Below, piece after piece: positions 25,972-64,000 of a stretch of DNA of 64,000 nt. The number at the start of each line of letters is the position of its first letter. Position 1 is the first letter of the stretch. The DNA lies in IMG/VR virus record IMGVR_UViG_3300009177_000003; one strand, written 5' to 3'. The position numbers and the translations under genes are program-made. This DNA comes from an uncultured virus (IMG/VR IMGVR_UViG_3300009177_000003) (lineage: Duplodnaviria; Heunggongvirae; Uroviricota; Caudoviricetes). The notes beneath the pieces are model-generated. The model was not told the DNA's origin. It saw nothing but the letters and a program-made list of their open reading frames with translations, and made no database searches.

Positions 25972-25972
25972 G

Positions 25973-28777: not shown

Positions 28778-28801
28778 CCCCTCACTGTCCGGAGCTATGC
28801 C

Positions 28802-30529: not shown

Positions 30530-30542
30530 AAGGAGGCGTGTC

Positions 30543-36541: not shown

Positions 36542-36544
36542 CGC

Positions 36545-38544: not shown

Positions 38545-38545
38545 C

Positions 38546-41005: not shown

Positions 41006-41009
41006 TCAC

Positions 41010-42044: not shown

Positions 42045-42046
42045 CC

Positions 42047-42442: not shown

Positions 42443-42448
42443 AAGGCG

Positions 42449-43972
42449 ATGCCGTACACCTTCGCCGATCGCGTCTGGTTCAACACCACGACGCTCGGTA
42501 CTGGCACGCTCACTGTCGGGACGCCGCTCATCTCGTATCAGGTGCCGGCGACCGCCGGCATCCCGAGCGGATCAGCGGTCAACTATACCATCGTTGACGG
42601 CGTAGGCTGGGAGGTCGGCAAAGGCGTCCTCACGAGCGGCACGCCATGGACGCTCTCCCGCGATACGGTCGAGGCTTCATCGGCGGGAGGTGCGAAGCTG
42701 TCGCTGAGCGGCAATGCCTCGTGCTTCCTGACCGTGACCGCCGCGATGTTGGCCGGTCAGCCCATCTCGGTGATGGCGTTCGGCGCCAAGGGCGATGGCG
42801 TGCATGATGATACCGGGGCGATCAATGATGCGATCGCGGCGGCGGGCGTGGTGTATATACCGGGCGGCGGCCGGCAATTCCTGGTCAGCGGCACGCTAAC
42901 GCTTCCGTCCAATGGCGCAATCATCGGTACAGAGGGCAAGGCCACCATCGTCACCGCGGCGGCAAACTTTCCGCTGATCCGCATCACCGGGCTCGACACC
43001 ACCGTCAAGAACCTGAAGATCTTCAACGCCAACAAGACCGGCGGCGCCGATATCCTGATCGATGTCGGGCCGACGACACCGCTGCAGCGGATCATCATCG
43101 AGGATGTCGAGGCAACTTCATCGTGGGGCTGCATCGCGGATACCGGTTCGGGCACGAACTTCTATGTCTCGACGTTCGTGCGCCGCGTGCGTTCGCTTTC
43201 CTGCCGTGGGGCGGACGCCTTCCGTCTAACAAGGATCTTTGGCTACCTCGTGATGGAGGACTGCTACGCCGATTTCATCAGCGTGTCGTCGCCGCTCTCC
43301 GACTTCAATGGTTTCGCGATCGACAATGCCTTGATCGGGGGGGCGGGCGCCAATCCGCCGGGACGAGCCTTCCTCACGCGGTGCTTCTCGGTCGGAAACT
43401 ACAGCGGCACCACGATCACCGGGAATAACGCGTTTCACTTCAACAATACGGGCGAGGTATGGCTGACCGACTGTCGTGCGGACTCGGTCGGCGGCTATGG
43501 CTTTGTGTTCGCCAACGTCAATCAAGTCCACATCGACAACTGCGGCTGCACCTTGGTCAACGGACCCGGCTGGACGTTCGACACCGTCTTGTATTTAGAG
43601 GCGTCCAATCTGCGGGTGTATGGCAGGAACGCTGGCGGTATTCCCGGCGCGGCCAACGCTCCCGGCATCTCGCTCCTGACCAACTGCGGCATCATGTCGT
43701 TCGTCAATCCCGTGATCTACGGGGTATTCGGCGACGGCATCAACATCCCTGGACAGATCGGGCCGATCAACATCACAGGCGGTCGGGTCATCGGTTGCAC
43801 CGGGTGGGGGATCGAGACCTCGGGCAGCTACGCGCTGCTCGGCGTCGGCCTGCAGCTTTCGACGAACAGCGCGGGCAACTACAACATTCTCGGGCCGATC
43901 CATTACCTCCGTGACACGCAGATCAACAGCGGCGCGGTCGTGGACGTGGGACCCGGTCCCGTCAGCGGATAG
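42449..43972 (+). CDS. Tailspike 1 (pectate-lyase-like beta-helix)
   Basis: FGAKGDGVHDDTGAI followed by beta-helix repeats; N-terminal ADRV...TTTLGTG anchor. Confidence 0.8.
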   Translation: MPYTFADRVWFNTTTLGTGTLTVGTPLISYQVPATAGIPSGSAVNYTIVDGVGWEVGKGVLTSGTPWTLSRDTVEASSAGGAKLSLSGNASCFLTVTAAMLAGQPISVMAFGAKGDGVHDDTGAINDAIAAAGVVYIPGGGRQFLVSGTLTLPSNGAIIGTEGKATIVTAAANFPLIRITGLDTTVKNLKIFNANKTGGADILIDVGPTTPLQRIIIEDVEATSSWGCIADTGSGTNFYVSTFVRRVRSLSCRGADAFRLTRIFGYLVMEDCYADFISVSSPLSDFNGFAIDNALIGGAGANPPGRAFLTRCFSVGNYSGTTITGNNAFHFNNTGEVWLTDCRADSVGGYGFVFANVNQVHIDNCGCTLVNGPGWTFDTVLYLEASNLRVYGRNAGGIPGAANAPGISLLTNCGIMSFVNPVIYGVFGDGINIPGQIGPINITGGRVIGCTGWGIETSGSYALLGVGLQLSTNSAGNYNILGPIHYLRDTQINSGAVVDVGPGPVSG

Positions 43973-51700: not shown

Positions 51701-54700
51701 GGCACGCTCGCGGCCGATTCACGGATCCTCCGACGTACCTCCGCGACTCTCGCCGGCTCTGGTGCGGTGACCTCAAGCGGCGTGGTGGTCGCGCGCGCCA
51801 GCGCCACTCTCGCCGGCCTGGGCTCGACCTCGCTCGCCGGCGGATTGCCGCAGAAGCCCGCCACGGCGTTGCTCGCTGGCACAGGGACGCTCTCCGCTGC
51901 GCCGTTCGTCATGCCGTTCGGTTCGGCGCAGATGGACGGGGCGGGCACCGCTGCTGGTGCCGTCGTGCTGCGCGATGTGGTGTCCGGAACGCTGGCAGGG
52001 ACAGGCACGCTCGCGGCCAACGGCGGTCGCGCGGTTGCGGCGTCGGCGGTGCTGGCGGGTGTCGGAACCTGCGCGGGTGATGCGACCGGGTTCAAGCCGG
52101 GCATCGCCACGCTGGCCGGCGTCGGCACGGTTGTCGGCGGATTGATCCTGCGCGGGCAGGTCAGCGCAACACTGGCGGGTCTCGGCGCGGTGCAGGGACA
52201 GGCGGCCGGCGTCTCGCGGTGGTTTGTCGCCGCACAGCTCGACGGCCTCGGCTCGCTCCTGGCTGTGCCGAGCCAGCGTGCGCTGGCGAGCACACAGCTC
52301 GACGGCGCGGGCACGGTGCTCGATGTCACTGCCGCGCTTCGCTTGCCGACCGCAGCGCAGCTTGACGGTGCTGGTGCGCTATCGGCGACGTTCGCCGCGA
52401 AGCTGCTCGCCTCCACGACGCTCGCCGGCCTTGGCGTCCTCGTCGCCGGCCCGGTCAAGACGACCTTCGCCACCGCTGCCCTGGCAGGCACCGGGGCGTT
52501 GTTCGCCTCCGGCGATCGGCAGGCCGGCTCGGTCGGGATCGCCCTCAATGGTCTGGGTGCCCTGGCCGCATCGGCGGCGCTGAGCGCCCTCGCAAGCGCC
52601 AGGATGGACGGCAGCGGAACGCTGCTCGCGGACGCTGCTGTGCTGCGCCGTGCGTCTGCATCGCTGGCGGGTATCGGCACACTCGCGGCGGCTGGCGGGC
52701 CACAGCGCCCGGCTACCGCAGCACTGGCCGGTCTCGGCACGCTCGCTGCTTCGGGGATCCATTACGCTCCGGGCGCCGCGACCTTGGCCGGCGCCGGGAC
52801 GCTCACCGCCCCTGCCCCGCTGTTGCGCGCCGCCGCCAGCGTGGTGCTCGCGGGCCAGGGCGGTTTCGTCGGCAACGGTATCCACACGGCGTTCGGTGCG
52901 GCAACGCTGGCCGGGGCCGGAGCCGTCGTCGCATTCACCCAGGGCACCCAGGCGGCCGAGGCGCTCCTGACGGGCCTCGGCGCCGTCATCGCCAACGCCA
53001 GCCACACCCCGAGCGCGTCGGCCGCTATGGCCGGAACCTCGTCGTTCACCGCGAACGCCGTGACCGTCCAGCCGATCGCCGCGACGCTCGCAGGCCTCGG
53101 CAGTCTTGCCGCGCAACCGACGCCGCAACGCACCGTCTCGGCGACGCTCGCAGGTCTTGGAACGATCACCGCCACGGCGCGCGTGCGGGCGAGTGCGAGA
53201 GCGACGCTGAACGGTGCTGGCACGTTCACCAGCAGCGCGCTGCATACGCCGGAAATGACGGCCGAGCTTGACGGGACCGGCTCGCTCACCGTCGCGGCGC
53301 AGCCGCTGCTCAGTCCGGCCGAAGCCGAGCTGGACGCGGACAGCACCTTCATCGCCGACACCGTTCAGCGGCAGACCGCCTCGGCCATACTCGCTGGCGA
53401 GGGCACGATCGCTGCGGCAACCGTCGGCGTCTCACGGTGGCTCGTCTCGGCGAAGTTGGACGGGCTTGGCACGATGGCGGCGAGCGTCATCGAGCGCGCC
53501 GTGGTCGCGGTCACGCTGACGGGTCGCGGCACCATTGCCGGCGACGGCACGCATACGCCGATCCTCCAGGCGACGTTGAACGGCACCGGCGCGGTCGTCG
53601 CAGGCGCCGTGCTCGGGCTGCCGACCAGTGCCGCGCTCGCGGGAGCGGGTTCGCTCACCGCCGATGCCAGCCACACACCGACCCTCGCGGCGCTCCTGCC
53701 CGGCACATCGTCGCTGACCGCAGCGGCCATCACGGCGCAGGCGGCTCAGGCGACGCTCGCGGGTGTCGGCACATTCGCAGCAGTACCGACGCCGCAGCGT
53801 GTTGTCTCTGCTGTGCTGAATGGCGCGGGCACGACAGTCGCCCCGACGACACGGCTGTTGCTGTACGCGAGCACCGTGCTCAGCGGATCGGGCGCGGTCC
53901 TCGGGGATGCACTCCATGCGTCCTTCCTCGACGCAACGCTCGCCGGCTCTGGCGCCATCGTCGCCACATCGCAGCCGATCATGCGCCCGACATCGGCCGT
54001 CCTCGCCGGGTCCGGCGCGATCAACGCCGCGCCGGTTCAGCGCCAGATCGCCGCCGCGACAATGGCGGGCGCAGGCGCCTTCATCGGACAGGCGCAGGGT
54101 TTCTCGATCTGGACCGGCTCGGTGCGGATGGACGGGCGGGGCGCGCTGACGGCCGCCGCCGTCGCCCGTCCGGTCGCTTCTGCCGAGCTCGACGGTCTCG
54201 GAGCATTCGTCGCCGACGCCGCGCATACCCCGACGGCACAGGCGATGCTTGCCGGTGACGGGACGTTCTTGGCCGCGCTGCGGACCATCCAGCCCATTGC
54301 CGCAAAGCTGACCGGGACCGGCGCTTTCGTCGCTGCGGCCAGTCACACGCCGCTGTTGCAGGCCACGTTGGCGGGCGCCGGTTCATGCACCGCATCGGCG
54401 AACGTCGTGCGCGCCGCCGCCGCTTCGCTCGCGGGGGTCGGCTCCCTGGCGGCGATTCCGATACCCCGTCGCACCGTCTCGGCGACCCTCGCCGGCGATG
54501 GCGAACTCGACGCGGACACACAGCAGATCTGGGCCTCGGCCGCAGCGCTCGCGGGCGCCGGCGCGATCACCGGGAACGTGCTGCACACACCGCGCTTGGC
54601 CGCCACGCTCGCAGGCACAGGCAAGCTGACCGTCACCTCGCGGGCGATCACACGACCGGCCTCCGCGCGGCTCAATGGCGCGGGCACGATTACCGCCTCG

Positions 54701-55708
54701 CTCAGACAGCGTCTGCGCGCCTCCGCGATATTGGCCGGGCTTGGCACACTCACGGCGCGGGCCAGCGGCGTATCGAGCTGGACCGTATCGGCAACACTGG
54801 CCGGACGCGGCGCGATCGCCGCAGCTGCCTCGGTCCGTGCCGTGGCGTCCGGCGCGATGGCGGGCACCGGCACACTCTCCGGCAACGTCAGCCACACCCC
54901 GCTGTTGCGCGCGGCACTCATCGGAGCGGGCACGCTCACGGGCAATCCGTCGCGGCAGACCGCAGCGGCAACATTGATCCACGGGGTCGGCGCGCTCGCC
55001 GCCAACCCGCTTGCGCTGCATCCCGGCGCTGCCGTCCTCGATGGACGTGGCGCGATCGTCGCTGTCGGAGGCCGCACGTCGCCGGCAATCGCCACGCTGG
55101 CCGGGCAAGGCGTCCTGTCGGTCCCGGGTTTCGTGCGGCAGGTGGTGCGCGCCCAGATCGACGGACGCGGCGCGGTGCTTGCCACCCCCTTCCGGCAGGT
55201 GCCGATGCTCACCTCGCTCGCCGGGCGAGGCACGCTCGCGACGATTGCCGGTCTCCAGATCCCTGTCGCTGCCACGCTCGCCGGTCGCGGCACGCTGGCG
55301 GCGGTCGTCTCTGGCCTGATCTTGGCGGCAGCGGCGCGGCTCAACGGAATCGGAGCGCTGGCACCGCCGACATTGCGCGCGGTGCTGCTGTCCTCGACGC
55401 AGCTCGACGGGCTCGGGCGTGTGCTGGGCGCGCCGTTCCATGCGGTTCCGGTCTCGGCCGAACTCGACGGAATCGGTCGCCTGCGCGGCAAGCTGCGCGA
55501 CGAGTTCGCGCAGGCCGACCTCGGCGCCGTGCTGCGGCCGATGGATCACGGGGTCGCGCTGCCGCCGTTCCTGCGCGGGCGTCGTCTCGGTGTGGCCGAG
55601 CATGGCGTCACCCTGCCGCCGTTCGAGCGGGGCGTGCGGCTCGCAGCCGATGAGGGCGGTGCCGGTCTTCCGCCACGGAAGGTCATCTGGGTGGAGCGCG
55701 TATCATGA
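45710..55708 (+). CDS. Giant repetitive fibre protein (3332 aa)
   Basis: Many A-x-L-x-G-x-G-T-L repeats plus four RASTATY-type modules. Confidence 0.85.
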   Translation: MAGLVPIAGFPIASGGDTIRSLDGRGTLTANGIHNPLGRATLVGQATLYAAWGPPPPAQQPVLGFAPLGAGPLAAIGLQFADQLILRGAGTLTANGVVTKFGSATLAGVGTVRGSGTHTPLLAATISGAGTIAATARQRMSVSGALAGLGTITGAGSHTPRLSAALAGTSALTVTSRLLLPTSATLSGSHSLIASAVLRLVAAWEADGAGTFDADASHTAFGAGIFAGLGAINATARQRWVTNAGTFSGAGTVSGSIGRRTYASAQLNGLGAVAPDADQRWTISGRCDGLGTLSAGATSTGLTTADLDGLGAVIATPIARLLASRTLPGLGAVIGNVTHNPLAAGALAGAGTFTGSANRLVLSASATLRGTHSLTANATHTPLLAATLAGLGTVGLSGGGTSGNSAIELDGLGTFSAAAQAPRRAASAELDGLGTLTPDQSVRMRLAASAPLSGIGTIAADGARATQSGTTTLAALGTVTGAGQIAFVASATLSGSHTLTANAQVIASAAASLAGLGTQSAAVSLGTLTMAAQLAGLGTFSGQAQGFSIWFSSATLNGIGAVLPFVRASTATYYDQSGNLIEVAANVPRFGYDQVTHAPQGMLLEAAGTNYSRNPRMVGLVPGTIGTLPTGYAAWSMLGLNRDLSSQVINGETFGVARMYGTIGSGGMILYIDNSTGATLMPVVQGDTVTISVDLAIIAGVHPTATFTMEAATLTSGSVALTTYAGPNIFSQLSSTPQRFSWTFTVNDATAALLRVFMGAARGSAGGFAADFTLAWGGPQFEKNVARATTLILPPVGQVAVSTRAQELAPVLLDVVASELDGIGTFAGNSRAITHTISATLAGIGTITPTGTRFTFAGTTQINGVGTIAGTLTSASQIGGELDGLGTTATFSRASNATYFDQDGNFVEVGSNVPRFTYNPITLAPLGMLLEGATTNYIRNPRAEGATVGTPLAYPQFWNNVGGQNGLTITPVGAGTINGIPYVDIRWQGTSTGNFNVLSFDAGNIAVPGVAQVGEVWTQSFYCAIVGGSLSQINSYSINTRMNGGAALPSLIFVPTATLTRYSLTGAVTSGTSSISPCGTFTFSSAAATVDITLRIAMPQFERGPLATSPTLPLINARVASTRAQEFAPVLLAAVSTELDGLGTLVGTARQRQQAAAELDGLGTCVATADNRKFASATLAGLGTITPSGAHTPTIAAALAGIGAVLGDGGGRYPITAEMDGAGTVAIDAVHYAPLGASLTGLGTISADGTANPLGTFEGDGLGAVATFVRESSATYYDQTGMLVTVGAGVPRIGFDRDTHAPLNLIIENGATNVIRNPRAEAAVVGSPGTLPTNWTIALIAGTARNVVGFGYQENGQPYVDIRVSGTTSATGTPTWNFETNSVCLAADGQFWSFSLDIQLIAGAMPTASTSIYLQPFNGATGLTALHNLNAGASIRTDRLTRITVSYQIPSLSGATFIRGGLQPGRSAPSGQAEDYTLRISCPQLEQLPKPSTLILPPIGQRVASIRAPESYSPNLLAGVAATLTGTHTLTANALHRPNGNAVLAGAGTLTADASQINRVAERNNLDGLGGVLPFSRASTATYFDSDGMLVDSAAINEPRFGYDPDTLAGPYLLIERASTNGLPNPRGENAIVGTTGTMPTYWTTTQSASVSIQRQIVETGSQNGFSYVDIRFFGTAAATNTNMNIYPVAATNAPAAAAGQQWATSAFIALVGGNLDGITLVRLYIQGLSSANAVLDNFSATVGFPEQGALRNNRIQMSRTLLNASTAKIFTLWQITAGANQTIDFTVRVAGWQLEPGDSATSLILPPAGTLAISNRAADFAPTLLLAAAGEADGLGTLIGTARQRQLLAAQLAGTGTLNATLRRLVFASARLDGAGTLAASPIARLLCFVPMAGSSSFTADAAPIVHPTAAELDGDGELSGDVSVFRPTDAELDGDGEIDAALVANQRVTAALAGLGTIAADAVGNPIGSATLAGLGTVAAAAVQLWTIQATLSGAGTLAADSRILRRTSATLAGSGAVTSSGVVVARASATLAGLGSTSLAGGLPQKPATALLAGTGTLSAAPFVMPFGSAQMDGAGTAAGAVVLRDVVSGTLAGTGTLAANGGRAVAASAVLAGVGTCAGDATGFKPGIATLAGVGTVVGGLILRGQVSATLAGLGAVQGQAAGVSRWFVAAQLDGLGSLLAVPSQRALASTQLDGAGTVLDVTAALRLPTAAQLDGAGALSATFAAKLLASTTLAGLGVLVAGPVKTTFATAALAGTGALFASGDRQAGSVGIALNGLGALAASAALSALASARMDGSGTLLADAAVLRRASASLAGIGTLAAAGGPQRPATAALAGLGTLAASGIHYAPGAATLAGAGTLTAPAPLLRAAASVVLAGQGGFVGNGIHTAFGAATLAGAGAVVAFTQGTQAAEALLTGLGAVIANASHTPSASAAMAGTSSFTANAVTVQPIAATLAGLGSLAAQPTPQRTVSATLAGLGTITATARVRASARATLNGAGTFTSSALHTPEMTAELDGTGSLTVAAQPLLSPAEAELDADSTFIADTVQRQTASAILAGEGTIAAATVGVSRWLVSAKLDGLGTMAASVIERAVVAVTLTGRGTIAGDGTHTPILQATLNGTGAVVAGAVLGLPTSAALAGAGSLTADASHTPTLAALLPGTSSLTAAAITAQAAQATLAGVGTFAAVPTPQRVVSAVLNGAGTTVAPTTRLLLYASTVLSGSGAVLGDALHASFLDATLAGSGAIVATSQPIMRPTSAVLAGSGAINAAPVQRQIAAATMAGAGAFIGQAQGFSIWTGSVRMDGRGALTAAAVARPVASAELDGLGAFVADAAHTPTAQAMLAGDGTFLAALRTIQPIAAKLTGTGAFVAAASHTPLLQATLAGAGSCTASANVVRAAAASLAGVGSLAAIPIPRRTVSATLAGDGELDADTQQIWASAAALAGAGAITGNVLHTPRLAATLAGTGKLTVTSRAITRPASARLNGAGTITASLRQRLRASAILAGLGTLTARASGVSSWTVSATLAGRGAIAAAASVRAVASGAMAGTGTLSGNVSHTPLLRAALIGAGTLTGNPSRQTAAATLIHGVGALAANPLALHPGAAVLDGRGAIVAVGGRTSPAIATLAGQGVLSVPGFVRQVVRAQIDGRGAVLATPFRQVPMLTSLAGRGTLATIAGLQIPVAATLAGRGTLAAVVSGLILAAAARLNGIGALAPPTLRAVLLSSTQLDGLGRVLGAPFHAVPVSAELDGIGRLRGKLRDEFAQADLGAVLRPMDHGVALPPFLRGRRLGVAEHGVTLPPFERGVRLAADEGGAGLPPRKVIWVERVS

Positions 55709-56079
55709 CGATTGCCAATCCCTACTCGTGGCCTCCGGTGCCTATGCCGGCGATGCGTGCCGGCGAAACCGATGGCCGGTACATCGACACGACACTCGAT
55801 CTCGGCGCCGCCGGCGATGCGATTCCAAGTGCGGGCGCGGTCGAAATCACAATCAGCCGGGTGGACGGCACGCCGACGGACGCGACCGATCTCACTCAGG
55901 CGGGCGACGCTTGGCAGAACACGCTCGATGCCACGGGCCTGATCTTCACCGTGGGTCTGATCGCGCCGGCCACTGCTGCCGGGCGCGGCTATTACCTGAC
56001 CATGCGGGTCAACAAGACCGTCGCCGGTCGCGTGTTCATCCGCGACGTCTCGCTCGCGGTCGCACCATTGCTCGGCTGA
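55705..56079 (+). CDS. Fibre adaptor-like protein
   Basis: 124 aa, beta-rich, ATGA-coupled to the giant gene. Confidence 0.6.
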   Translation: MTIANPYSWPPVPMPAMRAGETDGRYIDTTLDLGAAGDAIPSAGAVEITISRVDGTPTDATDLTQAGDAWQNTLDATGLIFTVGLIAPATAAGRGYYLTMRVNKTVAGRVFIRDVSLAVAPLLG

Positions 56080-56092
56080 CGGAGGTCGCTGC

Positions 56093-56602
56093 ATGTCGCC
56101 CGACACGTTCCTGAATCTCATCGACAACGGGCTCGAGTTCTTGGCCTCGCTCAACGGTCCGCAGCCGACCGATGCAGCGCGGCGACTGCTGCTTGCCATC
56201 GCGATGCAGGAAAGCGGACCGAAGCTCGACGCGCGGTATCAGAACAGCCCCTCGCCGATGCCGGGCCCGGCGAAATCTTTCTGGCAATTCGAGCAAGGTG
56301 GCGGCGTGACGGGCGTACTCAATCACAGCGCTTCGCGGGCGCTGGCGCGTGAGGCGTGCGCGACACTGGCCGTTGTGGCGGATCCGGCTGCGGTGTGGCG
56401 CGCGATGGAAGGCAACGACGAGCTTGCCTGCACCTTCGCGCGGTTGCTGGTCTGGACCGATCCGCAGCCGCTGCCGACGACCGAGGCCGCCGCATGGGAA
56501 TGCTATCTGCGCCTGTGGCGGCCAGGGAAGCCGCATCCCGAGACGTGGCCTGCGAACTGGCAGGCGGCGACGACGGCCGTGCTGAACACGCCCCTGGCAT
56601 GA
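56093..56602 (+). CDS. Putative endolysin (lysozyme-like fold)
   Basis: AIAMQESG, FWQFE, WRPGKPH; heads the lysis cluster. Confidence 0.7.
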   Translation: MSPDTFLNLIDNGLEFLASLNGPQPTDAARRLLLAIAMQESGPKLDARYQNSPSPMPGPAKSFWQFEQGGGVTGVLNHSASRALAREACATLAVVADPAAVWRAMEGNDELACTFARLLVWTDPQPLPTTEAAAWECYLRLWRPGKPHPETWPANWQAATTAVLNTPLA

Positions 56603-57228
56603 GCGACAAGCCGGAAGGGACGAAGCTGACGCCTGCGGGCGTATTCGAGCGGCTGCTGACCTACGCCGACAGGCCGTGGAAAGCAGCGGTGATGATCATC
56701 CTGCTGATCATCGGCGGGTTGGGGTGGTTGGTTTACGACCAGCGTGGATCGATCGCCGATGCCGTGCTGCATAAAGCGAATGAGCGCGCGGAACTCGATT
56801 CCGCGGCTTTCCTGCGGGACATCGACAAACTATTGCGCGACACCAGGGCCGACTACGGCCTGCTGCTTGAGGTCCACCTCGGGGACAATCTGATCGTCGA
56901 TCGGGTGGGGATCGATCGAGACGGCAGCCGATGGATTCCAAGCGCCGGCGCACAGCAGGCGTTGCAGCCTCAATCGTCGATGCCTCTGGTCGTGCAGTTC
57001 CTGTCCAACGAGTCGGTCTGCATGGATACGTCTTTAGCGATCAATGACGATATGCGGACCTTGGATGCCAAAGGATACAAGCGGGTCTGCATCGTCGCTG
57101 TGCCGCCGATCCTCGGAGTGTCAGTAGGTGCTTTGGTGCTCGCCTGGATGCAGGCGCTGACGCCCATTGCTGAGGGGCGGGCGAAGATCACCATGACCGC
57201 CGCCGCGATGAAATTCGCGTCGTGGTGA
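56599..57228 (+). CDS. Single-pass membrane protein with a GAF-like soluble domain (holin/antiholin candidate)
   Basis: TM AAVMIILLIIGGLGWLVY; CIVAVPP..GVSVGALVL. Confidence 0.5.
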   Translation: MSDKPEGTKLTPAGVFERLLTYADRPWKAAVMIILLIIGGLGWLVYDQRGSIADAVLHKANERAELDSAAFLRDIDKLLRDTRADYGLLLEVHLGDNLIVDRVGIDRDGSRWIPSAGAQQALQPQSSMPLVVQFLSNESVCMDTSLAINDDMRTLDAKGYKRVCIVAVPPILGVSVGALVLAWMQALTPIAEGRAKITMTAAAMKFASW

Positions 57229-57231
57229 TGA

Positions 57232-57657
57232 ATGGCGGAGGGCAATGGCGGCGGATGGAGCATAAACCGTAGGGACGGCATCTACGCGGCCCTGTTGGCG
57301 TTGAGCTTCGGTGGTGAACGGGTGCTGGATCGCGGCAGCGACGCCGATGTGCTGAAGGAAAAGGTCGGCTCGCTCGAGCACAACGTCGGTGAACTCCGGG
57401 ACCCAGGCGGTCCGGTGCTGCGGCAGGCGGTGCAGCAAATGAAGAACCATGAAGAGCGCATCCACGATCTGGAGCAGGCGCTGCGCAGCGGAGTGTCGCG
57501 CGAGGCGGTGGACGATCTCAAACAGCGGCTGGCTGATGCCAGGGAAGCCGACAAAGACCTGCGGCAACAACTCGACAATCTGCGCAACGCGATCGATAGC
57601 CTGCGCTCGGAGATCGCCCGCGCCACCACCTCGCGTCTGGTAGGACCGAACCGATGA
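57232..57657 (+). CDS. Membrane-anchored coiled-coil protein (i-spanin candidate)
   Basis: Short hydrophobic N-terminal segment then heptads; precedes a lipoprotein gene. Confidence 0.5.
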   Translation: MAEGNGGGWSINRRDGIYAALLALSFGGERVLDRGSDADVLKEKVGSLEHNVGELRDPGGPVLRQAVQQMKNHEERIHDLEQALRSGVSREAVDDLKQRLADAREADKDLRQQLDNLRNAIDSLRSEIARATTSRLVGPNR

Positions 57658-57914
57658 GATGGATCGTGCTGGCGGGCATTCTGGTCGCGTGCAGCGCACC
57701 CGATCCCCTGACGCCGCCGCCGACCGGAACCTGCACAGCGGATGCGAAGTTGCCGCAGCCGCCCGCGCCGAGCCAACGCAGCATCCCGGTGCTGGTGAAG
57801 TGGGCCAATACCGCAGCGACGACGGCAAATCGGGCGATCATCGAACGCGATGTGTGCCGCGGCTCGTACGAACGGCTGAACGCCTGGGCGCAGTCCGTCA
57901 GCAAATCAAAGTAG
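57654..57914 (+). CDS. Lipoprotein (o-spanin candidate)
   Basis: MRWIVLAGILVAC lipobox; Pro-rich, additional Cys. Confidence 0.65.
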   Translation: MRWIVLAGILVACSAPDPLTPPPTGTCTADAKLPQPPAPSQRSIPVLVKWANTAATTANRAIIERDVCRGSYERLNAWAQSVSKSK

Positions 57915-57924
57915 GGGACCATCA

Positions 57925-58332
57925 ATGGCCGACATCCCGCTCGACCCGAATCCCGCATTGCGTGCCGAACTCGAAGCGGCGAAGGCGGTACTCGAGCCCG
58001 AGCTGCGCGGGCTGCGCGATCTGTTCGTGGTGTCGATATCGGCGCCGCTGCAATCGTCAGTGAATGACCAGATCCTCGTGCGCCAGCGCCGGCTCGATCT
58101 GATCAATGAGGTGCTGAATGCGCTCGACAACGTGGTGCTCGACCGCACCGCGCTGGAAGCGGACGGCTATCCGGAGATGCCGGATGCGCCGCTGCCCGCT
58201 GATCAGTTCACCGAGCTGCAGGGCCAGGACACCGACCTGCAAGCCGCTATCGGCGTGTTCGAGGAAGCGCCGCCGCCCGCCACCACTCTGACGGTCAACC
58301 TGGGCGAACCGGTCCCGAAGCCCGCGCCGTGA
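57925..58332 (+). CDS. Hypothetical acidic protein
   Basis: 135 aa, AGGGG RBS. Confidence 0.7.
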   Translation: MADIPLDPNPALRAELEAAKAVLEPELRGLRDLFVVSISAPLQSSVNDQILVRQRRLDLINEVLNALDNVVLDRTALEADGYPEMPDAPLPADQFTELQGQDTDLQAAIGVFEEAPPPATTLTVNLGEPVPKPAP

Positions 58333-58361
58333 CGTGCCTACCCAACCCGAAAGGATGAGAC

Positions 58362-58691
58362 ATGGCCGACATCAACACCTCGCAGCAGTTCGACATCACG
58401 CTTGCGATCACCAACGCGAACGGCGATCCCGCGCCGGTCGATGGCGTGCCTGTATGGGCGTCCAGCGATGAGACAGTGATCTCTGTGACCGCAGCCGCCG
58501 ACGGCATGAGTGCCGTCGCTCCGGCGGTGGCTCCGGGCACCGCGCGCATCACGGTGACGGCGGATGCCGATACCGGGAGCGGGGTGACGACGATCACCGG
58601 CGTCAGCGAGGACATCACCGTCGTGGTCGATCCAGCGAATCAGGCCAGCGTGATCACGCTGACCTTGGGCGCCCCCGTTCCGAAGACCTGA
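58362..58691 (+). CDS. Ig-like domain protein
   Basis: PVWASSDETVISV...GTARITVTADAD (bacterial Ig-like group 2 pattern). Confidence 0.7.
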   Translation: MADINTSQQFDITLAITNANGDPAPVDGVPVWASSDETVISVTAAADGMSAVAPAVAPGTARITVTADADTGSGVTTITGVSEDITVVVDPANQASVITLTLGAPVPKT

Positions 58692-58733
58692 TCGCGGCCT
58701 CCCCAGACCGACCTTCTACCCAGGCCGCGATCT

Positions 58734-58766
58734 GGCCCCAGGCACTCCGGTGTCTGGGGCCTTTTT
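58734..58766 (+). terminator. Rho-independent terminator ending the late operon
   Basis: GGCCCCAGGCAC-TCCG-GTGTCTGGGGCC-TTTTT between convergent genes. Confidence 0.85.
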
Positions 58767-59236
58767 CATGTCCGCAGCGTCACCGAGGCGATGGCGCGCG
58801 GATGCCAGATGCAGCCGCCGGCTACGTCCCAGCCGTAGTACCACATGGCCTCAAGCCGCCGCTCCCAGACGTAGGGCGTGATGATCAGTCCGTCGTAGCG
58901 TTCCATCACCACAGGCCAGTTCAGCCACATCGACCCAAGGCGCGAGATGGGGCCGGCCCACTCCGGGACGACGCACCATTCGGCGCCGAAGGCATCGATG
59001 TCGGCTGGCGTGCTCAAGATCAGCACGTTGGCGCCCGGCGCCAGCTCGACATCGTGCGCGTGCGTCAGTCGGTCGGTGCCGAATTTCTCGGCGGCGCACC
59101 ACGCGGGCCAGTTGTCCTCGCAGGCGTCGTCCGACACCCACAGCCCAGCCGGCTTCATCAGGGCACGATTACCGGGAGGCAGCGTCCCCGGCCGCAGCTC
59201 CCCGAGCGGTTCGCTGGAATAGTGGACGAGCTTCAT
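58766..59236 (-). CDS. Phage hypothetical protein
   Basis: KPAGLWVS...YDGLII...YGWDV. Confidence 0.75.
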   Translation of the reverse strand: MKLVHYSSEPLGELRPGTLPPGNRALMKPAGLWVSDDACEDNWPAWCAAEKFGTDRLTHAHDVELAPGANVLILSTPADIDAFGAEWCVVPEWAGPISRLGSMWLNWPVVMERYDGLIITPYVWERRLEAMWYYGWDVAGGCIWHPRAIASVTLRT

Positions 59237-59499
59237 GCCCAGCCTTCCCGCTCCGGGTCCGGTGCCCGCCCGATCATGCCAGTGTAGCGCTGGACCATGA
59301 CCTCAACGTCGGCCAGGGGGACCGGGATCTCATGCAGCACTCGGCCGCTACCGAACATCGCGCGGGCACTGATCTCGAGCGCCCGTTCGCGTGAATAGCG
59401 TCCAGCCTCACTGATACGCTGCGTGTAGCCTATCTCGCCCGGCCCCCACCAAGCCGAGTGCTCGTGCGACCAGATCAGGTAGTCGCGTGCCTCGCTAAT
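59233..59499 (-). CDS. Phage hypothetical protein with apparent ATT start (not in the ORF track)
   Basis: (M)SEARDYLIWSHEHSAWWGPGEIGYT...AGRYS; GGAGG 8 nt before ATT; stop overlaps the next ATG. Confidence 0.6.
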   Translation of the reverse strand: MSEARDYLIWSHEHSAWWGPGEIGYTQRISEAGRYSRERALEISARAMFGSGRVLHEIPVPLADVEVMVQRYTGMIGRAPDPEREGWA

Positions 59500-59902
59500 C
59501 GCCGTTTCCTCCGTTCTGCCAGCCCTGCCCGCTCACTTCATCGAAAATGACTGCCTCATAGGCTCGGATAGCCGCTTGCACCGCTCCGTGCAGGAGCTTG
59601 GGCTCAATGCGCTCGACCGGGGTCCCCAACCTGGCGCCTAGGGTCTCCATGAGGGCCTGCTTGGCGGCCTCAATGGCTGCTTCATCGCAGCGATCATTCA
59701 TCATGTCCCCTCGCGCGTCAGGCTGCGCCCACTCCAGGTCTTCTCGCAGTGTCGCTGCCGAGGCGATGCCAGCGTATCTGACGAACACGTAGCTGGCATT
59801 GAAGGACGTGATCATCCCCTCCTCAACCTTGCGGCCGGGAAAGTCGCCGTGCTCCCGGTAGATCACTTTTCGGCCGATGTCCGTGGGTTTTGGCTCGATC
59901 AT
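59495..59902 (-). CDS. Hypothetical protein
   Basis: DIGRKVIY...EEGMITSFN..YVFVRY. Confidence 0.7.
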   Translation of the reverse strand: MIEPKPTDIGRKVIYREHGDFPGRKVEEGMITSFNASYVFVRYAGIASAATLREDLEWAQPDARGDMMNDRCDEAAIEAAKQALMETLGARLGTPVERIEPKLLHGAVQAAIRAYEAVIFDEVSGQGWQNGGNGD

Positions 59903-59954
59903 TTTCCTAATTCCTCCTAGCGCGATAAACGGCCTTATCGCGCCTGACCGACGA

Positions 59955-60212
59955 TCACGCCCATTTCCCGCCGGCAGGCTTGATGATTAGGTTCGGCTTA
60001 TCCTTCGAGAACTCTAGCGGCGTTCCTGGTGGATCAATCCGCTCGATGATGACCTGAAAGCCGCTGACGTTGAGCCGGGTGCCAACCTTCGGCAGCGGCT
60101 TGCCGCGTGGTCCCTTGGTTCGCCAGAGCAAGGTGAAGCGTGGCAGTTGGCCATCTACGCGACGGCAGATCAGTGCGTGCTTCTGGTCCAGATCGGGGAT
60201 GCTGTCGCTCAT
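59955..60212 (-). CDS. Hypothetical protein
   Basis: 85-aa ORF between palindromic sites. Confidence 0.6.
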   Translation of the reverse strand: MSDSIPDLDQKHALICRRVDGQLPRFTLLWRTKGPRGKPLPKVGTRLNVSGFQVIIERIDPPGTPLEFSKDKPNLIIKPAGGKWA

Positions 60213-60289
60213 GTTTCGCTTCCGGTGGACGGCGGCTCTCTCATTGATTTCCCTCCCTCTTTTGCCAGTCGGGCGCGGTAACTGAGCTG

Positions 60290-60571
60290 TTATCGCGCGT
60301 CGTCAGCGTCCTGTAGGCCCATGACAACGTATCCAGGCTCAATGCCAAGCTGGCCGCCCGTCAGGATGTAGCTGATCCGCTTCCGCACTTCCTTGAAGCT
60401 GTAGGAGCCGGGTTCCGTTGTCGAAAGCCCGGTTTTTCGTTCCGTGCACCGCAGCACGAGGATATCGCCACGCTGAAAGCCGCGATCATCCCGGCGAACC
60501 TCAAAGGGCTTCGCGCCGGACGCCACCGCCTCCCAGTAGGGCTGCCACGTTTTCAGGACGTGCTCGGTCAT
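60290..60571 (-). CDS. DUF3850 (ASCH/PUA-like) protein
   Basis: HVLKTW..YWEAV.SG.KPFEVR.DDRGFQ.GD...GYVVMG. Confidence 0.85.
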   Translation of the reverse strand: MTEHVLKTWQPYWEAVASGAKPFEVRRDDRGFQRGDILVLRCTERKTGLSTTEPGSYSFKEVRKRISYILTGGQLGIEPGYVVMGLQDADDAR

Positions 60572-60622
60572 CCGCCTGATTTCCCTTCCTCTTTTGCCGG
60601 CTCAGCGCGGGTAACTGAGCTG

Positions 60623-60904
60623 TTATCGCGCCCGGCCAACGTCTACGGAGGCGCCAAGCCAGTTGGCTGCCATTGCATAGAAAACGTGATCTGCGGCTGC
60701 CTCGCCCGGAGAATCGCCGCGCGGTCCCAGTTCAAACTGCTGCCCCGTTCCAGCCTGATCTATTTGCCTTTCCAGGGCGGCGATGGCCCGCAGCATATTG
60801 CTGGCGAGTCGTTCGTGAAACGCTAGAAGGTGCTCCGGCGGAAGCTGAGCGAGCCACAGGTCGTATTCAACGACCGGATCGTCGAGGTCGAGATCGCTCT
60901 GCAT
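60623..60904 (-). CDS. Hypothetical protein
   Basis: 93 aa, AGGAG RBS, stop inside a palindromic site. Confidence 0.6.
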   Translation of the reverse strand: MQSDLDLDDPVVEYDLWLAQLPPEHLLAFHERLASNMLRAIAALERQIDQAGTGQQFELGPRGDSPGEAAADHVFYAMAANWLGASVDVGRAR

Positions 60905-60942
60905 TGGGCGCTCCTAAATTCCACTAGGCGCGAGAAGCGGGA

Positions 60943-61179
60943 CTATGGCGCCCGGCTTAGGGCCTCCCTGATCTTGTCCATGGTCCCTGCGTTCGGCGCC
61001 GTGTTGAACATCATGTCGTCCACCACCTCCTGAAGCAGCGAGCGCAGCCGCCCGATCTCTTCATCAGACACCCGCAGCATCTCGCGGGCTGCACGCATCG
61101 CAGCTTCACGGTCTTGCTCGTAGGCGCTGTCGTCCGATTGCAACCAGTCAGCCGCCGCCTCAATGCGAGCATGGCTCAT
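60943..61179 (-). CDS. Hypothetical protein
   Basis: MSHARIEAA..., GGGAG RBS, stop inside a palindromic site. Confidence 0.65.
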   Translation of the reverse strand: MSHARIEAAADWLQSDDSAYEQDREAAMRAAREMLRVSDEEIGRLRSLLQEVVDDMMFNTAPNAGTMDKIREALSRAP

Positions 61180-61198
61180 GTTTCGCTCCCTAATTCCA

Positions 61199-61693
61199 CT
61201 AGGCGCGGTCGGCATAGCGCCATCCACTCATCGATCGCGAGGCGCGGTAGCGTGCTGTTGCAGGGTGTATCCCATAATGCCGGGCCGCTGATTTTATTGA
61301 CGGGAAGAGACCATCGGGCGTCTGGCACGCTTTGGCCTGCCTTGAGTCGGCGCCATTTTCCTTCGCGGAACCACAGAAGATATTGCCCAGCTCATAGGGG
61401 CCGCGGTCGTTGAATCGGCACATACGCCACTGTCCCAAACCCTTCCCGCGTTCCGCTCCTGGCCCTTTTCGAGCAAGGGCATCGTGCCACCAGTTGAACC
61501 ACGCCTCATAAGTCAGATTGAATTCGATGCCACGTCTGGCTGCCTGTTTTCTGTGTGCCTCACAGGCCATCCGGCTGAGCATGTGGCCCTTGCAACAGTC
61601 CCGACAAAAGGTCGCACGGCCGTCTGCCGAGAACATGGTGTAGTGAAAATCGGCGATGTCTTTGTTTTCCCCACACTTTTCGCAATGCTTCAT
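61199..61693 (-). CDS. HNH-like homing endonuclease with zinc finger and NUMOD1-like tail
   Basis: CEKC...CRDC; RRGIEFNLTYEAWFNWW; MCRFNDRGPYELGNIFC...EN; TPDGLFPSIKSAARHYG; lower GC. Confidence 0.75.
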   Translation of the reverse strand: MKHCEKCGENKDIADFHYTMFSADGRATFCRDCCKGHMLSRMACEAHRKQAARRGIEFNLTYEAWFNWWHDALARKGPGAERGKGLGQWRMCRFNDRGPYELGNIFCGSAKENGADSRQAKACQTPDGLFPSIKSAARHYGIHPATARYRASRSMSGWRYADRA

Positions 61694-61742
61694 GGGTGCC
61701 TCGGGTAAATTCCACTACTCCACATAATCGGGGTTATCGCGC

Positions 61743-61961
61743 CTAGGTGCCCTCCGGTGCGATTTCCGGCACGCTCCGCTCGATCTCGTCGGCGATGAAG
61801 CGCAACATCCGCGACAGCCCTGCGGTGACGGCCGGCGTCGCCTGAACCGAGAACCCACTCCCCGCAGGGCCGCCGATCACCACAACGATCACGCCCTCTG
61901 CCGCCGCCTGCTCGCGGACGAGCGTCGCGAGGTCGTCGTATTTTCCGGGTCCGGCTGGCAT
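61743..61961 (-). CDS. Hypothetical protein
   Basis: GPGKYDD...GSGFSVQ. Confidence 0.7.
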   Translation of the reverse strand: MPAGPGKYDDLATLVREQAAAEGVIVVVIGGPAGSGFSVQATPAVTAGLSRMLRFIADEIERSVPEIAPEGT

Positions 61962-61979
61962 AGCTTCTTTTGACCTCCG

Positions 61980-62174
61980 TCATCCACCCCCTCGAATCCG
62001 GCGAAGCAGCTGCGACAGGCGCCATGGCCGCATCGCCCTGGCCTCGGCCAGCTGCTGGCGCAGCGCCTCCGCGGGGCATTCCATCTCCTTTTCTTTCGGC
62101 AGCGAGGCGCACATCCCGCACGTCTCGACCCCCCACCACCGGGCGCCGCAGCGCGGACAGCGCCAGGGTTTCAT
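61980..62174 (-). CDS. Small zinc-ribbon protein
   Basis: WRCPRCG...CGMC. Confidence 0.55.
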   Translation of the reverse strand: MKPWRCPRCGARWWGVETCGMCASLPKEKEMECPAEALRQQLAEARAMRPWRLSQLLRRIRGGG

Positions 62175-62359
62175 TCGTCGCGTCCCATTTCCCGCAGCGC
62201 TTCCTCCCGCTCCTTCGGATCCATCCGCGCCAGGATCTTCTCGATCTCGCGCATCAGCATTTCACAGTACGTGTAGGGAAAGGCTTCCCACGCGGCCGCG
62301 AGATGGACCAACACCACGAGCGAGATCAGCCAAAGCCCGAGTTCGACGGTTAGGATCAT
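62171..62359 (-). CDS. Small membrane protein
   Basis: MILTVELGLWLISLVVLVHL...; ATGA coupling. Confidence 0.55.
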   Translation of the reverse strand: MILTVELGLWLISLVVLVHLAAAWEAFPYTYCEMLMREIEKILARMDPKEREEALREMGRDE

Positions 62360-62736
62360 GCCAACTTCAACATAAACAGCCCCGGCTGCCGATCTTGCAC
62401 CGGCTCGACTACCCGGACGCCGATGGCGCGAGCCTGCCGCACGCAATCCCGGGTCCCCTTCCCGCCCGGAAACGCCAGAACGACGTCGGGCTTCGCATCC
62501 AGCAGCATGTGCTTGTTACGTTCCGGCCCAGCACGATCCCCGCGGCTCCAGTCGGCCTTATAGGTCACGAGGGGCACCTTGCGCCGGCGCGCCCAGGCGG
62601 CGGCGAGACGGTCGGCCCCCGGAGCTCCGCCCTGCCCGAGGATCTCGATGCCGTAGTTGTTGTGCCAGAGGTCCAGCACATGCCAGAGCGTCTGCCGGTC
62701 GGCGTAATTCCTCCCGCCGCACACCACGACCATCAT
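62356..62736 (-). CDS. SLOG-family (DUF2493/YspA-like) protein
   Basis: VVVCGGRNY, GGAPGAD, ADW, AGPERN..ML, AFPGGKGT. Confidence 0.85.
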   Translation of the reverse strand: MMVVVCGGRNYADRQTLWHVLDLWHNNYGIEILGQGGAPGADRLAAAWARRRKVPLVTYKADWSRGDRAGPERNKHMLLDAKPDVVLAFPGGKGTRDCVRQARAIGVRVVEPVQDRQPGLFMLKLA

Positions 62737-62906
62737 GCGGCGTCCCTTTCGTGCGGCAGCCGGCGCCGCATTTCCTCCCGCTCCTCCGGATCCCCGATCC
62801 CGGCGATGAACGAGCAGGTCAGGCAACGTCCGTGCTCTGGCGGGCGGCCCAGCGCCATCGAATGGATCGACCAGCCGCAGTCGCAGCATATGAATGTCAC
62901 GCTCAT
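62733..62906 (-). CDS. Small zinc-binding protein (not in the ORF track)
   Basis: MSVTFICCDCG...RCLTC; coupled to the next gene. Confidence 0.55.
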   Translation of the reverse strand: MSVTFICCDCGWSIHSMALGRPPEHGRCLTCSFIAGIGDPEEREEMRRRLPHERDAA

Positions 62907-62916
62907 GCCCGCCCTT

Positions 62917-63132
62917 TCACCATCCTTGGGGTGGAACGGGATCGTGGATCACCATGCGCCGGCTATCCGGGTCGAGGCTGGCGAACCAGTAGGTCGCCTC
63001 GGCCTCAATGGCCTGGGTTGCGACTCGCGGCGGCAGGGCATCGCGCGCCACGAAACGGGCGACGCGCCCCTCCCTGTCGATGATCTCCCAGTGCCTATGA
63101 TCGGCGCGAGGCCGCATAACCTTGACGATCAT
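62917..63132 (-). CDS. Hypothetical protein
   Basis: MIVKVMRP..., GAGGAGG RBS. Confidence 0.65.
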   Translation of the reverse strand: MIVKVMRPRADHRHWEIIDREGRVARFVARDALPPRVATQAIEAEATYWFASLDPDSRRMVIHDPVPPQGW

Positions 63133-63205
63133 AGAGTCCTCCTCTCTTGCGCGAATCTTTGCGGTGTGTACCCGGCACGACAGTCGCCCATTTTCCGGAG
63201 GCCGC

Positions 63206-63598
63206 GTGTCGGAAGACGAGATCCCCCAGGACGAGCTGGCTGGGGACAAGCTGGCCAACTACACGATCAAGAACCTGCCCTTGCGGGCCCGGATGCGGGC
63301 CTCGAACGCAGCCAGGATGGCCGGCCGGCCGCTCGGCCAATGGATGGACTGGGCGATCGGCCTTGCGGCCGACCAGCAGGAGCGGAACGCGGTGCTGCCT
63401 GGGGGCGACAGTCGTGCCCTCGTGCCCCCGGGCTCCGAGGCGACGGCCCCGGCGCTGCCAGGGGCGACAGTCGCCCCTCCGGATCCGATGCTCTGTCTGG
63501 TGCACGCCGCCGTGGCGCTGAGCGGGGTCGGTGTGCGGAATACCAAGGTCGTGCGGCAGGCGCGTGACCTCGTCAGCCGAAAGCTGCTCGAGCTGTAG
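63206..63598 (+). CDS. Ribbon-helix-helix-like DNA-binding protein
   Basis: YTIKNLP...RASNAARMAGRPLGQWMDWAI; GGAGG RBS before GTG. Confidence 0.55.
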   Translation: MSEDEIPQDELAGDKLANYTIKNLPLRARMRASNAARMAGRPLGQWMDWAIGLAADQQERNAVLPGGDSRALVPPGSEATAPALPGATVAPPDPMLCLVHAAVALSGVGVRNTKVVRQARDLVSRKLLEL

Positions 63599-63621
63599 GC
63601 GACGCTGGCGTAGCGACGGCA

Positions 63622-64000
63622 TCAGCCAGCCTCCAGCATCCGGTCGATCTCCCCCGGCGTGGGGAGGATCGCCGCGTGCGCTTTTGTCCAGCCACCTTTG
63701 TCGAGCTCGCTCAGCGGCCGGTCGAGCTTGCCGGGGGCGCCGATCCAATCGGCGATCTTCTCGGCCATCTCGGCGCTGGTGATCTTGTCGGTCTCGTCCT
63801 CCGCGTCTTCGAGTGCGCCGATGTTAAACTCGGTGAAGTCGACGTGGTCGATGCCCGGTACCGTGATCGCGATGTCGTAGCCGTTCCACTGGAAGCGCTT
63901 CAGCCCGGAGAAATGCAGCTTGATTGCGCGGATCCCGCGTTTGGTCCGTCGCTGATGGGCACGCACCAAATGGAAAATCCGCCGTCTCTTGCCGTCAGCG
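63622..64000 (-). CDS. 3' part of a gene running in from beyond the window
   Basis: ...IFHLVRAHQRRTKRG..., frame open to the window end. Confidence 0.65.
   Translation of the reverse strand, partial: ADGKRRRIFHLVRAHQRRTKRGIRAIKLHFSGLKRFQWNGYDIAITVPGIDHVDFTEFNIGALEDAEDETDKITSAEMAEKIADWIGAPGKLDRPLSELDKGGWTKAHAAILPTPGEIDRMLEAG

Follow-up and report, generated by a model that had tools for sequence, protein, structure and literature searches.

Six related palindromic sites separate consecutive small - strand genes in a phage genome, and the question they raise is whether genes are exchanged at them by a recombinase. The DNA analysed is a stretch of 64,000 nt (the window) from the IMG/VR virus record IMGVR_UViG_3300009177_000003. 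The sites, here called elements A to F, are within 1.8 kb of one another and all in direct orientation. An earlier note, made from the sequence alone, described sites with 11 bp arms and a 6 or 8 bp spacer at these gene boundaries, and proposed that they are XerC/XerD dif-like sites of a cassette array similar to plasmid pdif modules. Its sites are all present (59918-59945, 60271-60300, 60604-60633, 60926-60953, a partial site at approximately 61199-61221, and 61717-61744). We consider the chances to be about even that the elements are lox/dif-like sites of plasmid-borne Cre/Xer-like recombinases, which would act in trans, and that they bound exchangeable phage gene cassettes.

The palindromic site proper is 32 bp and is part of a composite element of approximately 48 nt, consisting of a 13 bp inverted repeat, CTACGCGCGATAA / TTATCGCGCGTAG, a variable spacer of 6-8 nt, and a one-sided box, GTGGAATT or (GTAG)TGGAATT. 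The 11 bp arms and spacers described earlier are there, but the unit is larger, with 13 bp arms and, at A, D, E and F, the box, TAGTGGAATT(T), on the side of the downstream gene. B and C have no box, and share a 66 nt repeat in its place. The order in the mRNA at each junction is the upstream stop codon (inside or just before the left arm), spacer, right arm, box (A, D, E and F), a purine-rich ribosome-binding site (RBS) and ATG. As the earlier note had it, the stop codons at 60290, 60623 and 60943 (- strand genes 60290-60571, 60623-60904 and 60943-61179) coincide with the innermost bases of an arm, and on the - strand each site is followed by a purine-rich RBS. The core architecture of the sites is that of a tyrosine recombinase site: a 6-8 nt spacer lies between inverted arms that end in GATAA/TTATC. 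The elements are listed below with scores from R1, a covariance model built from 20 elements in other viral contigs, containing no window sequence and run unfiltered over the whole window, and with z-scores for RNA folding.

Element A, 59904-59951, - strand: perfect palindrome GCGCGATAA-GGCCGT-TTATCGCGC (59920-59943), then box TAGGAGGAATT, RBS and the ATG at 59902; R1 34.6 bits, E 4.5e-8; fold z = -2.27.
Element B, 60271-60300, - strand: palindrome CGCGCGATAA-CAGCTCAG-TTACCGCGCC without box, inside the 66 nt repeat (60245-60310) common with C; R1 13.1 bits; fold z = -1.35.
Element C, 60604-60633, - strand: palindrome GGCGCGATAA-CAGCTCAG-TTACCCGCGC without box, with the same spacer as B; 98 % identical to L048 5489-5540; fold z = -2.31.
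Element D, 60912-60959, - strand: degenerate palindrome GGCGCCATAG-TCCCGC-TTCTCGCGCC, then box TAGTGGAATTT; R1 18.1 bits; fold z = -0.26.
Element E, 61187-61221, - strand: the left arm is decayed and the spacer is short (GGCGCTATG-CCGAC); CGCGCC and box TAGTGGAATT follow, and the stop codon of gene 61199-61693 is the TAG in this box; R1 13.9 bits; fold z = -0.93.
Element F, 61703-61750, - strand: the left flank and arm (GCACCTAG GCGCGATAA) and the box GTAGTGGAATTT are intact, the spacer is CCCCGA, and the right arm, TTATGTGGA, is decayed; R1 25.4 bits; fold z = +1.53.

R1 matched A, F, D, E and B, all on the - strand, and its best match elsewhere in the window had 11.1 bits and an E value of 0.5; the scan thus matched only sites that had already been described. 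C was not reported because of an extra C in its right arm. E had been called a half-site at 61201, but is a decayed full site rather than a clean half-site. Compared with a generic dif site (arms of approximately 11 bp, inner ATAA/TTAT and a 6-8 bp centre), A, B and C correspond in full and D, E and F in part. The arrangement CTACGCGCGATAA-N6-TTATCGCGCGTAG in the alignment of 20 loci also corresponds to a lox-like site, with inverted repeats of approximately 13 bp and a short asymmetric spacer. With up to one mismatch, TTATCGCGC occurs 21 times in the 64 kb, against 23.6 expected, and there is no overall excess. However, all five exact copies are within 59920-61742, so that the non-chance signal is their clustering. 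Neither the box nor the repeat motifs occur in the remaining 14 kb of the genome, which is outside the window and was read from IMG/VR record G001. The six sites are real and not due to chance.

Many GC-rich phage contigs also contain the element, as do genomes of Acetobacteraceae. When IMG/VR was scanned for GCGCGATAA-N5-9-TTATCGCGC, there were 29 loci with a match, G001 among them. Of the remaining 28, 18 have GTGGAATT (up to two mismatches) at the same 3 nt offset from the right arm, and ACCTAC often precedes the palindrome. These 18 boxed loci, together with two borderline loci, were used as the seed for R1. Their consensus is ACCTAc-GCGCGATAA-N6-TTATCGCGC-GTAGTGGAATT, for which the search pattern had fixed the nine inner bases of each arm and left the outer four arm bases and the box free. 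Searching with the flanks only (ACCTAC-N23-25-GTAGTGGAATT) gave eight loci, six of them chance matches and two real members with the same arms, and revealed no new arm variants, indicating that the phage arms are conserved as sequence. Covariation of the arms, which the earlier note had named as a sign of RNA stems, was not seen within the phage sample. Half sites, in which similarity ends in the spacer, are also present. Position 3823 of locus L034 has a left arm and spacer, and L034 4220 and L013 4390 have a spacer, right arm and box; the sites in the L034 and L013 arrays have a common spacer, GTGCGG. Among the element instances compared, six pairs are alike on one side only, including L006/L034c and L023/L029.

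Site A with its spacer and atypical box (59909-59945) was also found in contigs from two rhizosphere metagenomes (runs X5 and X8), with unrelated flanks on both sides. This match is short (37 nt, at a 90 % threshold). The unrelated flanks point to the same site on other replicons of those communities.

The same palindrome is found beside plasmid recombinase genes. A strict pattern scan of approximately 185,000 genomes, one per species, detected seven loci, three in Acidiphilium and one each in Rhodopila, an Acetobacteraceae metagenome-assembled genome (MAG), an alphaproteobacterial MAG and a Polyangia MAG. The Polyangia locus is identical to viral locus L032 over the element and 60 nt on each side. 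In an 8.8 kb RepA-bearing contig of Acidiphilium rubrum (L044), the element is approximately 50 nt upstream of the ATG of a recombinase gene encoding a 360 aa protein with PF00589 and the SAM-like N-domain PF02899, and genes for an uncharacterized protein and a ScpA-like protein follow. L040 and L041 have the same layout, with the element approximately 50 nt ahead of the ATG for a 360 aa recombinase. Acidiphilium sp. PA has approximately 10 copies of the element on different contigs, three of which precede recombinase paralogues, and another Acidiphilium rubrum copy precedes a PAAR protein gene. Complete, named plasmids also have the site upstream of the recombinase gene: it is between repA and this gene in p92689 of Komagataeibacter saccharivorans, and a plasmid of Roseomonas mucosa has it too.

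Homologues of the recombinase (E up to 1e-30) were found in 48 of the 151 family genomes sampled. R1 had a match at E up to 1e-6 in eight of the 151, all of which belong to these 48. When 30 recombinase loci were fetched, 10 had GATAA-N6-7-TTATC (up to one mismatch) no more than 330 nt from the estimated start, a space of 9,272 nt over all loci, and the remaining 98,951 nt contained seven matches, several of them just outside the 330 nt windows. R1 detects 11-13 of the 30. The arms shift symmetrically with the recombinase clade (CGCGATAA/TTATCGCG, CGTGATAA/TTATCACG and CCCGATAA/TTATCGGG); GATAA/TTATC does not change between clades, and on the gene side a G(G/C)AATT box is usually kept. The recombinase is a simple two-domain protein, and its best relatives among solved structures are Cre chains. 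Its scores with the XerD and XerC equivalog profiles are weak (41-49 bits) and far under the cut-offs of 330-335 bits. From this association and co-variation, the plasmid palindrome is very probably the recombinase's own site, used for recombination or for autoregulation. The most likely role of the palindrome is as the place where a family of simple Cre/Xer-like tyrosine recombinases, carried on Acetobacteraceae plasmids, binds and makes the crossover; the Acetobacteraceae are the probable host clade.

Some plasmid loci have further features. In L042, L044, L040 and L041, a second palindrome, (A)TAGAAC-N4-GTTCTA(T), is approximately 40-90 nt upstream of the element and may be the operator or promoter of the recombinase operon; divergent helix-turn-helix (HTH) genes are upstream in L044. 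A conserved three-gene unit, which begins with the recombinase gene and continues with those for a protein of approximately 235-250 aa without a family and the ScpA-like protein (L044 350-3008; L169 2923-5470), is found on Acidiphilium and Roseomonas plasmids. The copies in L083 (1501-2014, an Acidiphilium rubrum contig), L084, L087 and L089 are upstream of non-recombinase genes, one of which encodes a PAAR-motif protein. In these copies, the left arm is degenerate, and the right arm, box and GGGGGCTATCG are perfectly conserved.

Gene replacement at the elements was seen in comparisons with L048 and L125, which were found via the backbone gene 58766-59236 and are the only two close relatives available. 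The relatives differ in the genes that they carry between the elements, and the breakpoints are at or inside the sites, as the earlier note expected of a cassette array. L048, from IMG/VR, is 89 % identical in the backbone protein and 81-88 % identical along the backbone. However, from 61205 to 60935 of the window there are 0 mismatches in 271 nt, flanked by mismatches at 61206 and 60934. This tract includes the outer right arm of E, its box, the RBS, the gene for a 78 aa protein, and the left arm and spacer of D, and it ends at 60935/60934, inside the right arm of D. Past the box of D the sequences are unrelated, with one gene (93 aa, 60623-60904) in the window and genes for a 59 aa zinc-ribbon protein and an 86 aa protein in L048, and from the left arm of C on the two are similar again, at 98 %. 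Upstream of E, the genes (61199-61693 in the window and 4326-4802 in L048) encode proteins that are 32 % identical and have the same last codons, which are element E. L125, a 3.4 kb metagenome contig, is 99.9 % identical over 2,665 nt up to 61207, inside the right arm of E. Upstream of this point it has an unrelated gene and then a full hybrid palindrome, GGGCGTGATAA-TGCCCA-CTATCGCGCC, and approximately 1.7 kb carried by the window is absent. The junction at E is thus 61205/61206 for L048 and 61207/61208 for L125. Cassettes have been replaced between close relatives, with junctions inside the elements.

As the left arm holds the stop codon of the upstream gene, and the right arm and box stay with the downstream RBS and start codon, a unit of right arm, box, RBS, gene and left arm behaves as a cassette. 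Insertion and excision of such cassettes would be catalysed in trans by a recombinase of the host or of a resident plasmid, and the identity of the spacer would decide which sites can pair. The core architecture, the presence of the palindrome beside recombinase genes and the position of the breakpoints support the part of the earlier proposal that links the cassettes to a recombinase; the part that identified the sites as XerC/XerD dif sites is not supported (see below).

Several findings weigh against recombination at lox/dif-like sites. No recombinase was found in the window, as already reported, nor in the rest of the genome of approximately 78 kb: PF00589 had no match in G001, and no integrase was detected among the open reading frames (ORFs) called in the window using Pfam and PHROGs (PHROGs only for the structural region, 18.9-54.1 kb). 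The records of L048, L013 and L034, the last rated 100 % complete and having terminal repeats, likewise yielded no tyrosine recombinase. The records of L026 and L027 carry ordinary phage integrases, leaving four of the six element-bearing phage records searched without a match, and catalysis would therefore need to come in trans. The palindrome is present at only 10-13 of the 30 recombinase loci. The spacers in the window differ (GGCCGT in A, CAGCTCAG in B and C, TCCCGC in D, short in E and CCCCGA in F), so that B and C are the only two that could pair, and spacer length across the family is 6, 7 or 8 nt. A lox/dif explanation leaves the box unexplained, and the fixed gene orientation and the position between stop codon and RBS would suit an expression signal just as well. 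The divergence of L132 from the window begins precisely where a gene starts and no element is present, indicating that mosaicism at gene boundaries also arises without it. The L048 copy of C is 1 nt shorter than that of the window, and a deletion of approximately 870 bp in L048 (window 60404 to 59534) begins and ends within genes. Only the junction at D constrains the crossover, placing it to the right of the spacer identity and to the left of position 3 of the right arm. As the right arm and box are conserved regardless, apparent junctions are biased to the spacer border, and the mapping fits crossover in the spacer and short-homology recombination alike and cannot separate them.

The main rival explanation is that the element is primarily an expression signal, for example an operator, a translation-associated motif like the start-associated sequences (SAS) and extended SAS (ESAS), or a regulatory cassette like the promoter early stem-loops (PeSLs). 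In that case, genes would be exchanged as a side effect of short-homology recombination between these conserved linkers, via the ERF-type protein of the phage or via the host. The element is co-oriented with the genes of the array, with the stop codon in the left arm and the box 5-25 nt ahead of the start codon. The phage encodes ERF, the element is near ERF or RecT genes in five of the loci examined, and a recombinase was found in only two of the six phage records. A length of approximately 48 nt is enough homology for short-homology recombination. The paper on PeSLs cites under 50 bp as sufficient, and describes the same shuffling of ORFans, together with mini-circles, without a dedicated recombinase (PMC2839356); an inverted repeat with a variable spacer followed by an asymmetric box before the start is also the layout of an ESAS plus SAS as described for mycobacteriophages (PMC3203893). 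However, a simple consensus scan found no sigma-70-like promoters in 58700-62500 and no terminator-like site or U tract at any element, and the sole terminator-like hairpin, 58734-58761, is where the array meets convergent + strand genes. At other loci the stop codon of the upstream gene is often in the left flank or is the TAA of GATAA, but several have no downstream gene on the same strand, and in L032 and L043 the element is between convergent genes. A general expression signal would be spread more widely than 1.8 kb of a genome of approximately 78 kb, and it would leave the adjacency of the palindrome to recombinase genes and its variation by clade unexplained. An expression signal is a serious rival, though it is less probable than lox/dif-like sites. 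Readings of the element as REP/RAYT-like, as a CRISPR repeat, as a CtrA, LexA or DnaA-box site, or as a sigma-54 or extracytoplasmic function (ECF) promoter were considered and rejected, as the motifs do not match or there is no room for a promoter before the start codon. The box as a -35 with a GCTA-type -10 fits some plasmid copies loosely and does not fit the phage copies.

RNA hairpins in a polycistronic - strand transcript, acting as processing sites, 3' stabilizers or attenuators, were the alternative given in the earlier note. RNase III sites lie between T7 early genes, and the sites here also fall between consecutive co-transcribed genes. A and C do form stable hairpins (-16.8 and -23.2 kcal/mol, z about -2.3), B folds moderately well, and the symmetric changes of the arms between recombinase clades also keep the pairing. 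D, E and F, however, fold no better than shuffled sequences, and yet retain the sequence of arm and box, which weakens this alternative. The stems are conserved in sequence and the loops are variable, the reverse of what is usual for RNA hairpins recognized by proteins, and half sites lacking the partner arm occur. There is no U tract, an Rfam scan of 58500-63000 at E up to 1 gave no match, and the plasmid copies precede a single gene rather than sit between genes. Hairpins are thus an improbable explanation. Least probable, and very much so, are genuine dif-like sites of the host chromosomal XerC/XerD, as found in pdif modules or in integrative mobile elements exploiting Xer (IMEX). The 11 bp arms ending in ATAA/TTAT and the 6-8 bp linker fit the generic definition of dif as given in a preprint (10.64898/2026.09.14.751567), and the recombinase family at the plasmid sites has weak matches to XerD/XerC profiles. 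However, those scores are the 41-49 bits set against cut-offs of 330-335 bits, the arms are symmetric with no distinct XerC and XerD halves, and the spacers are GC-rich and variable. Using ATAATGTATATTAT, which we take to be the dif core, as a search motif with up to one mismatch, no match was found in four of five element-bearing genomes, and the single match in the fifth is not dif-like. The 8/11 match of F to the Escherichia coli XerD arm, put forward in the earlier note, is arithmetically right, but falls in the decayed right arm of F, which is a degenerate copy of TTATCGCGC.

The cassette genes of the array, which is the distal end of a - strand run of small genes, and the gene upstream of F are as follows.

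59495-59902, - strand: 135 aa; only residues 8-59 match phrog_18065 (63 positions).
59955-60212, - strand: 85 aa; family searches found no family.
60290-60571, - strand: 93 aa, DUF3850/ASCH-like; PF12961, E 2.9e-23.
60623-60904, - strand: 93 aa; family searches found no family.
60943-61179, - strand: 78 aa; 100 % identical in L048, versus 89 % for a backbone gene.
61199-61693, - strand: 164 aa, with a zinc-ribbon (Lar-like/HNH-like) N-terminus and last codons within element E.
61743-61961, - strand: 72 aa, the gene upstream of F, with its stop codon TAG in the left flank of F.

The 135 aa gene looks like two fused cassettes. One contig from run X6 links window position 59714 to an element of the B/C type, which suggests a population variant in which an element still parts the two halves of this gene (around 59705-59722). 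The 78 aa gene was searched for in other contexts, and only this phage and L048 have it. In L048 (5547-6017), the DUF3850 gene is fused to unrelated sequence past codon ~56 as a result of the deletion of approximately 870 bp. Behind site B, an 11-codon mini-ORF (MREPPSTGSET, 60209-60244, - strand) begins 7 nt past GGGAGGG, and its TGA overlaps the ATG of 59955-60212 (ATGA); it may encode a leader peptide with translational coupling. There is no counterpart at the equivalent place behind site C. An open frame of approximately 88 codons (59236-59495, - strand) fills the gap between 59495-59902 and 58766-59236 and overlaps the next gene by ATGA. Close to where it opens there is no ATG, GTG or TTG, and an ATT after GGAGGAAAC is the sole plausible start.

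The window is most of a myovirus-like phage genome, and the following genes, as well as baseplate genes, are found in it.

9692-13021: portal gene.
22900-23997: major head protein gene.
28802-30529: sheath gene.
45710-55708, + strand: a single ORF of 3,332 aa after the tail-fibre genes, where GC content is up to 0.73.

G001 is 42,815 bp and rated 55 % complete. Its bases 1-9891 correspond to window 54110-64000 and bases 23937-42815 to window 1-18881 (99.98-99.99 % identity). The window therefore wraps round the ends of G001, so that the genome is circularly permuted and approximately 78 kb, and G001 is a 55 % fragment. The GC content of the array region is 0.61, versus approximately 0.65 in the rest of the window. 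In addition to the ERF-type annealing protein, the phage encodes a MarR-like HTH protein and a ParB_N-like protein, and with the latter present and no integrase found, a plasmid-prophage lifestyle is possible. A blastn search of 58700-62500 against a phage database returned only one irrelevant match, of 104 nt, to a Gordonia phage. The 24 sequencing runs listed with phage sequence are all rhizosphere or soil metagenomes (Logan contigs), and none is RNA. The contigs of runs X5-X8, which are short, of low depth and uninformative on excision, contained no joint between any two sites; their sole joint, 59068 to 59188 in X8, is unrelated.

Among known systems, the Cre/loxP system of phage P1 has 13 bp inverted repeats around an 8 bp spacer. 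The elements are like loxP in having 13 bp inverted arms and a short asymmetric spacer, Cre chains are the solved structures that best match the recombinases at the plasmid copies, and on the plasmids the site adjoins the recombinase gene. They differ in the spacer, which is 6-8 nt and varies between copies, in the additional one-sided box, and in that the phage has six sites and no recombinase was found in it. Whereas pdif modules are flanked by inversely oriented sites, those of the phage are in direct orientation, and the resemblance drawn in the earlier note holds as an analogy only. The replicon here is also a phage, the arms are symmetric and not specific for XerC and XerD, and the modules are single small ORFs. 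The likeness is that, in Acinetobacter plasmids as described in PMC5790767 and PMC9947245, dif-like sites bracket accessory modules that differ between replicons, and the recombinase is outside the module.

The array shares with integrons its co-oriented ORFs, the lack of a detected promoter, an imperfect palindrome overlapping each 3' end and cassettes that differ between relatives. However, intI, attI and Pc were not found, and PF00589 was without a match in G001. Integron attC sites are 57-141 bp with R and L boxes; the site here is 32 bp with sequence-conserved arms and no attC core motifs, and nothing suggests folding of a single strand. Integron elements have been reported in phage genomes (PMC9892861). 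That Acetobacteraceae phages have an integron-like platform without an integrase, in which lox-like arrays use recombinases borrowed from plasmids of the host to take up, drop or exchange single accessory genes, the spacer serves as an address and genes flow between phages and plasmids, is a tentative suggestion that we think may well be wrong.

In the T4-type phages described in PMC2839356, composite stem-loop motifs (PeSLs) also flank ORFans in a hyperplastic region, replacements and deletions end in the motifs, and there is no dedicated recombinase. Those motifs have a strong sigma-70 promoter and a functional terminator, neither of which was found here by the simple consensus scan, and PeSLs are not linked to recombinase genes elsewhere. 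The SAS/ESAS of Cluster K mycobacteriophages, as described in PMC3203893, likewise have an asymmetric box before start codons, and a subset of these boxes comes after imperfect inverted repeats whose spacer varies. However, in the account given there the SAS is a 13 bp motif, GGGATAGGAGCCC, with 11-19 copies genome-wide, versus six sites in 1.8 kb here; it contains the RBS itself, and the sequence of the box and the host phylum differ. A search of the literature on pdif and phage cassettes, Acetobacteraceae phage repeats and Acidiphilium plasmid recombinases found no description of the element, which is not proof that there is none.

It has long been asked how small accessory genes enter and leave phage genomes at exact gene boundaries, and the answers proposed include moron accretion, linker-mediated modular exchange and PeSL shuffling. 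As the boundary element can here be tied to a specific enzyme family in the host mobilome, the mechanism is directly testable. An expression signal would make the element a GC-rich alphaproteobacterial counterpart of the PeSL or ESAS elements. If, on the other hand, the elements are lox/dif-like sites used by plasmid-borne recombinases, the cassette logic of pdif modules and integrons would extend to virulent or plasmid-like phages, and there would be a channel for gene exchange between phages and plasmids.

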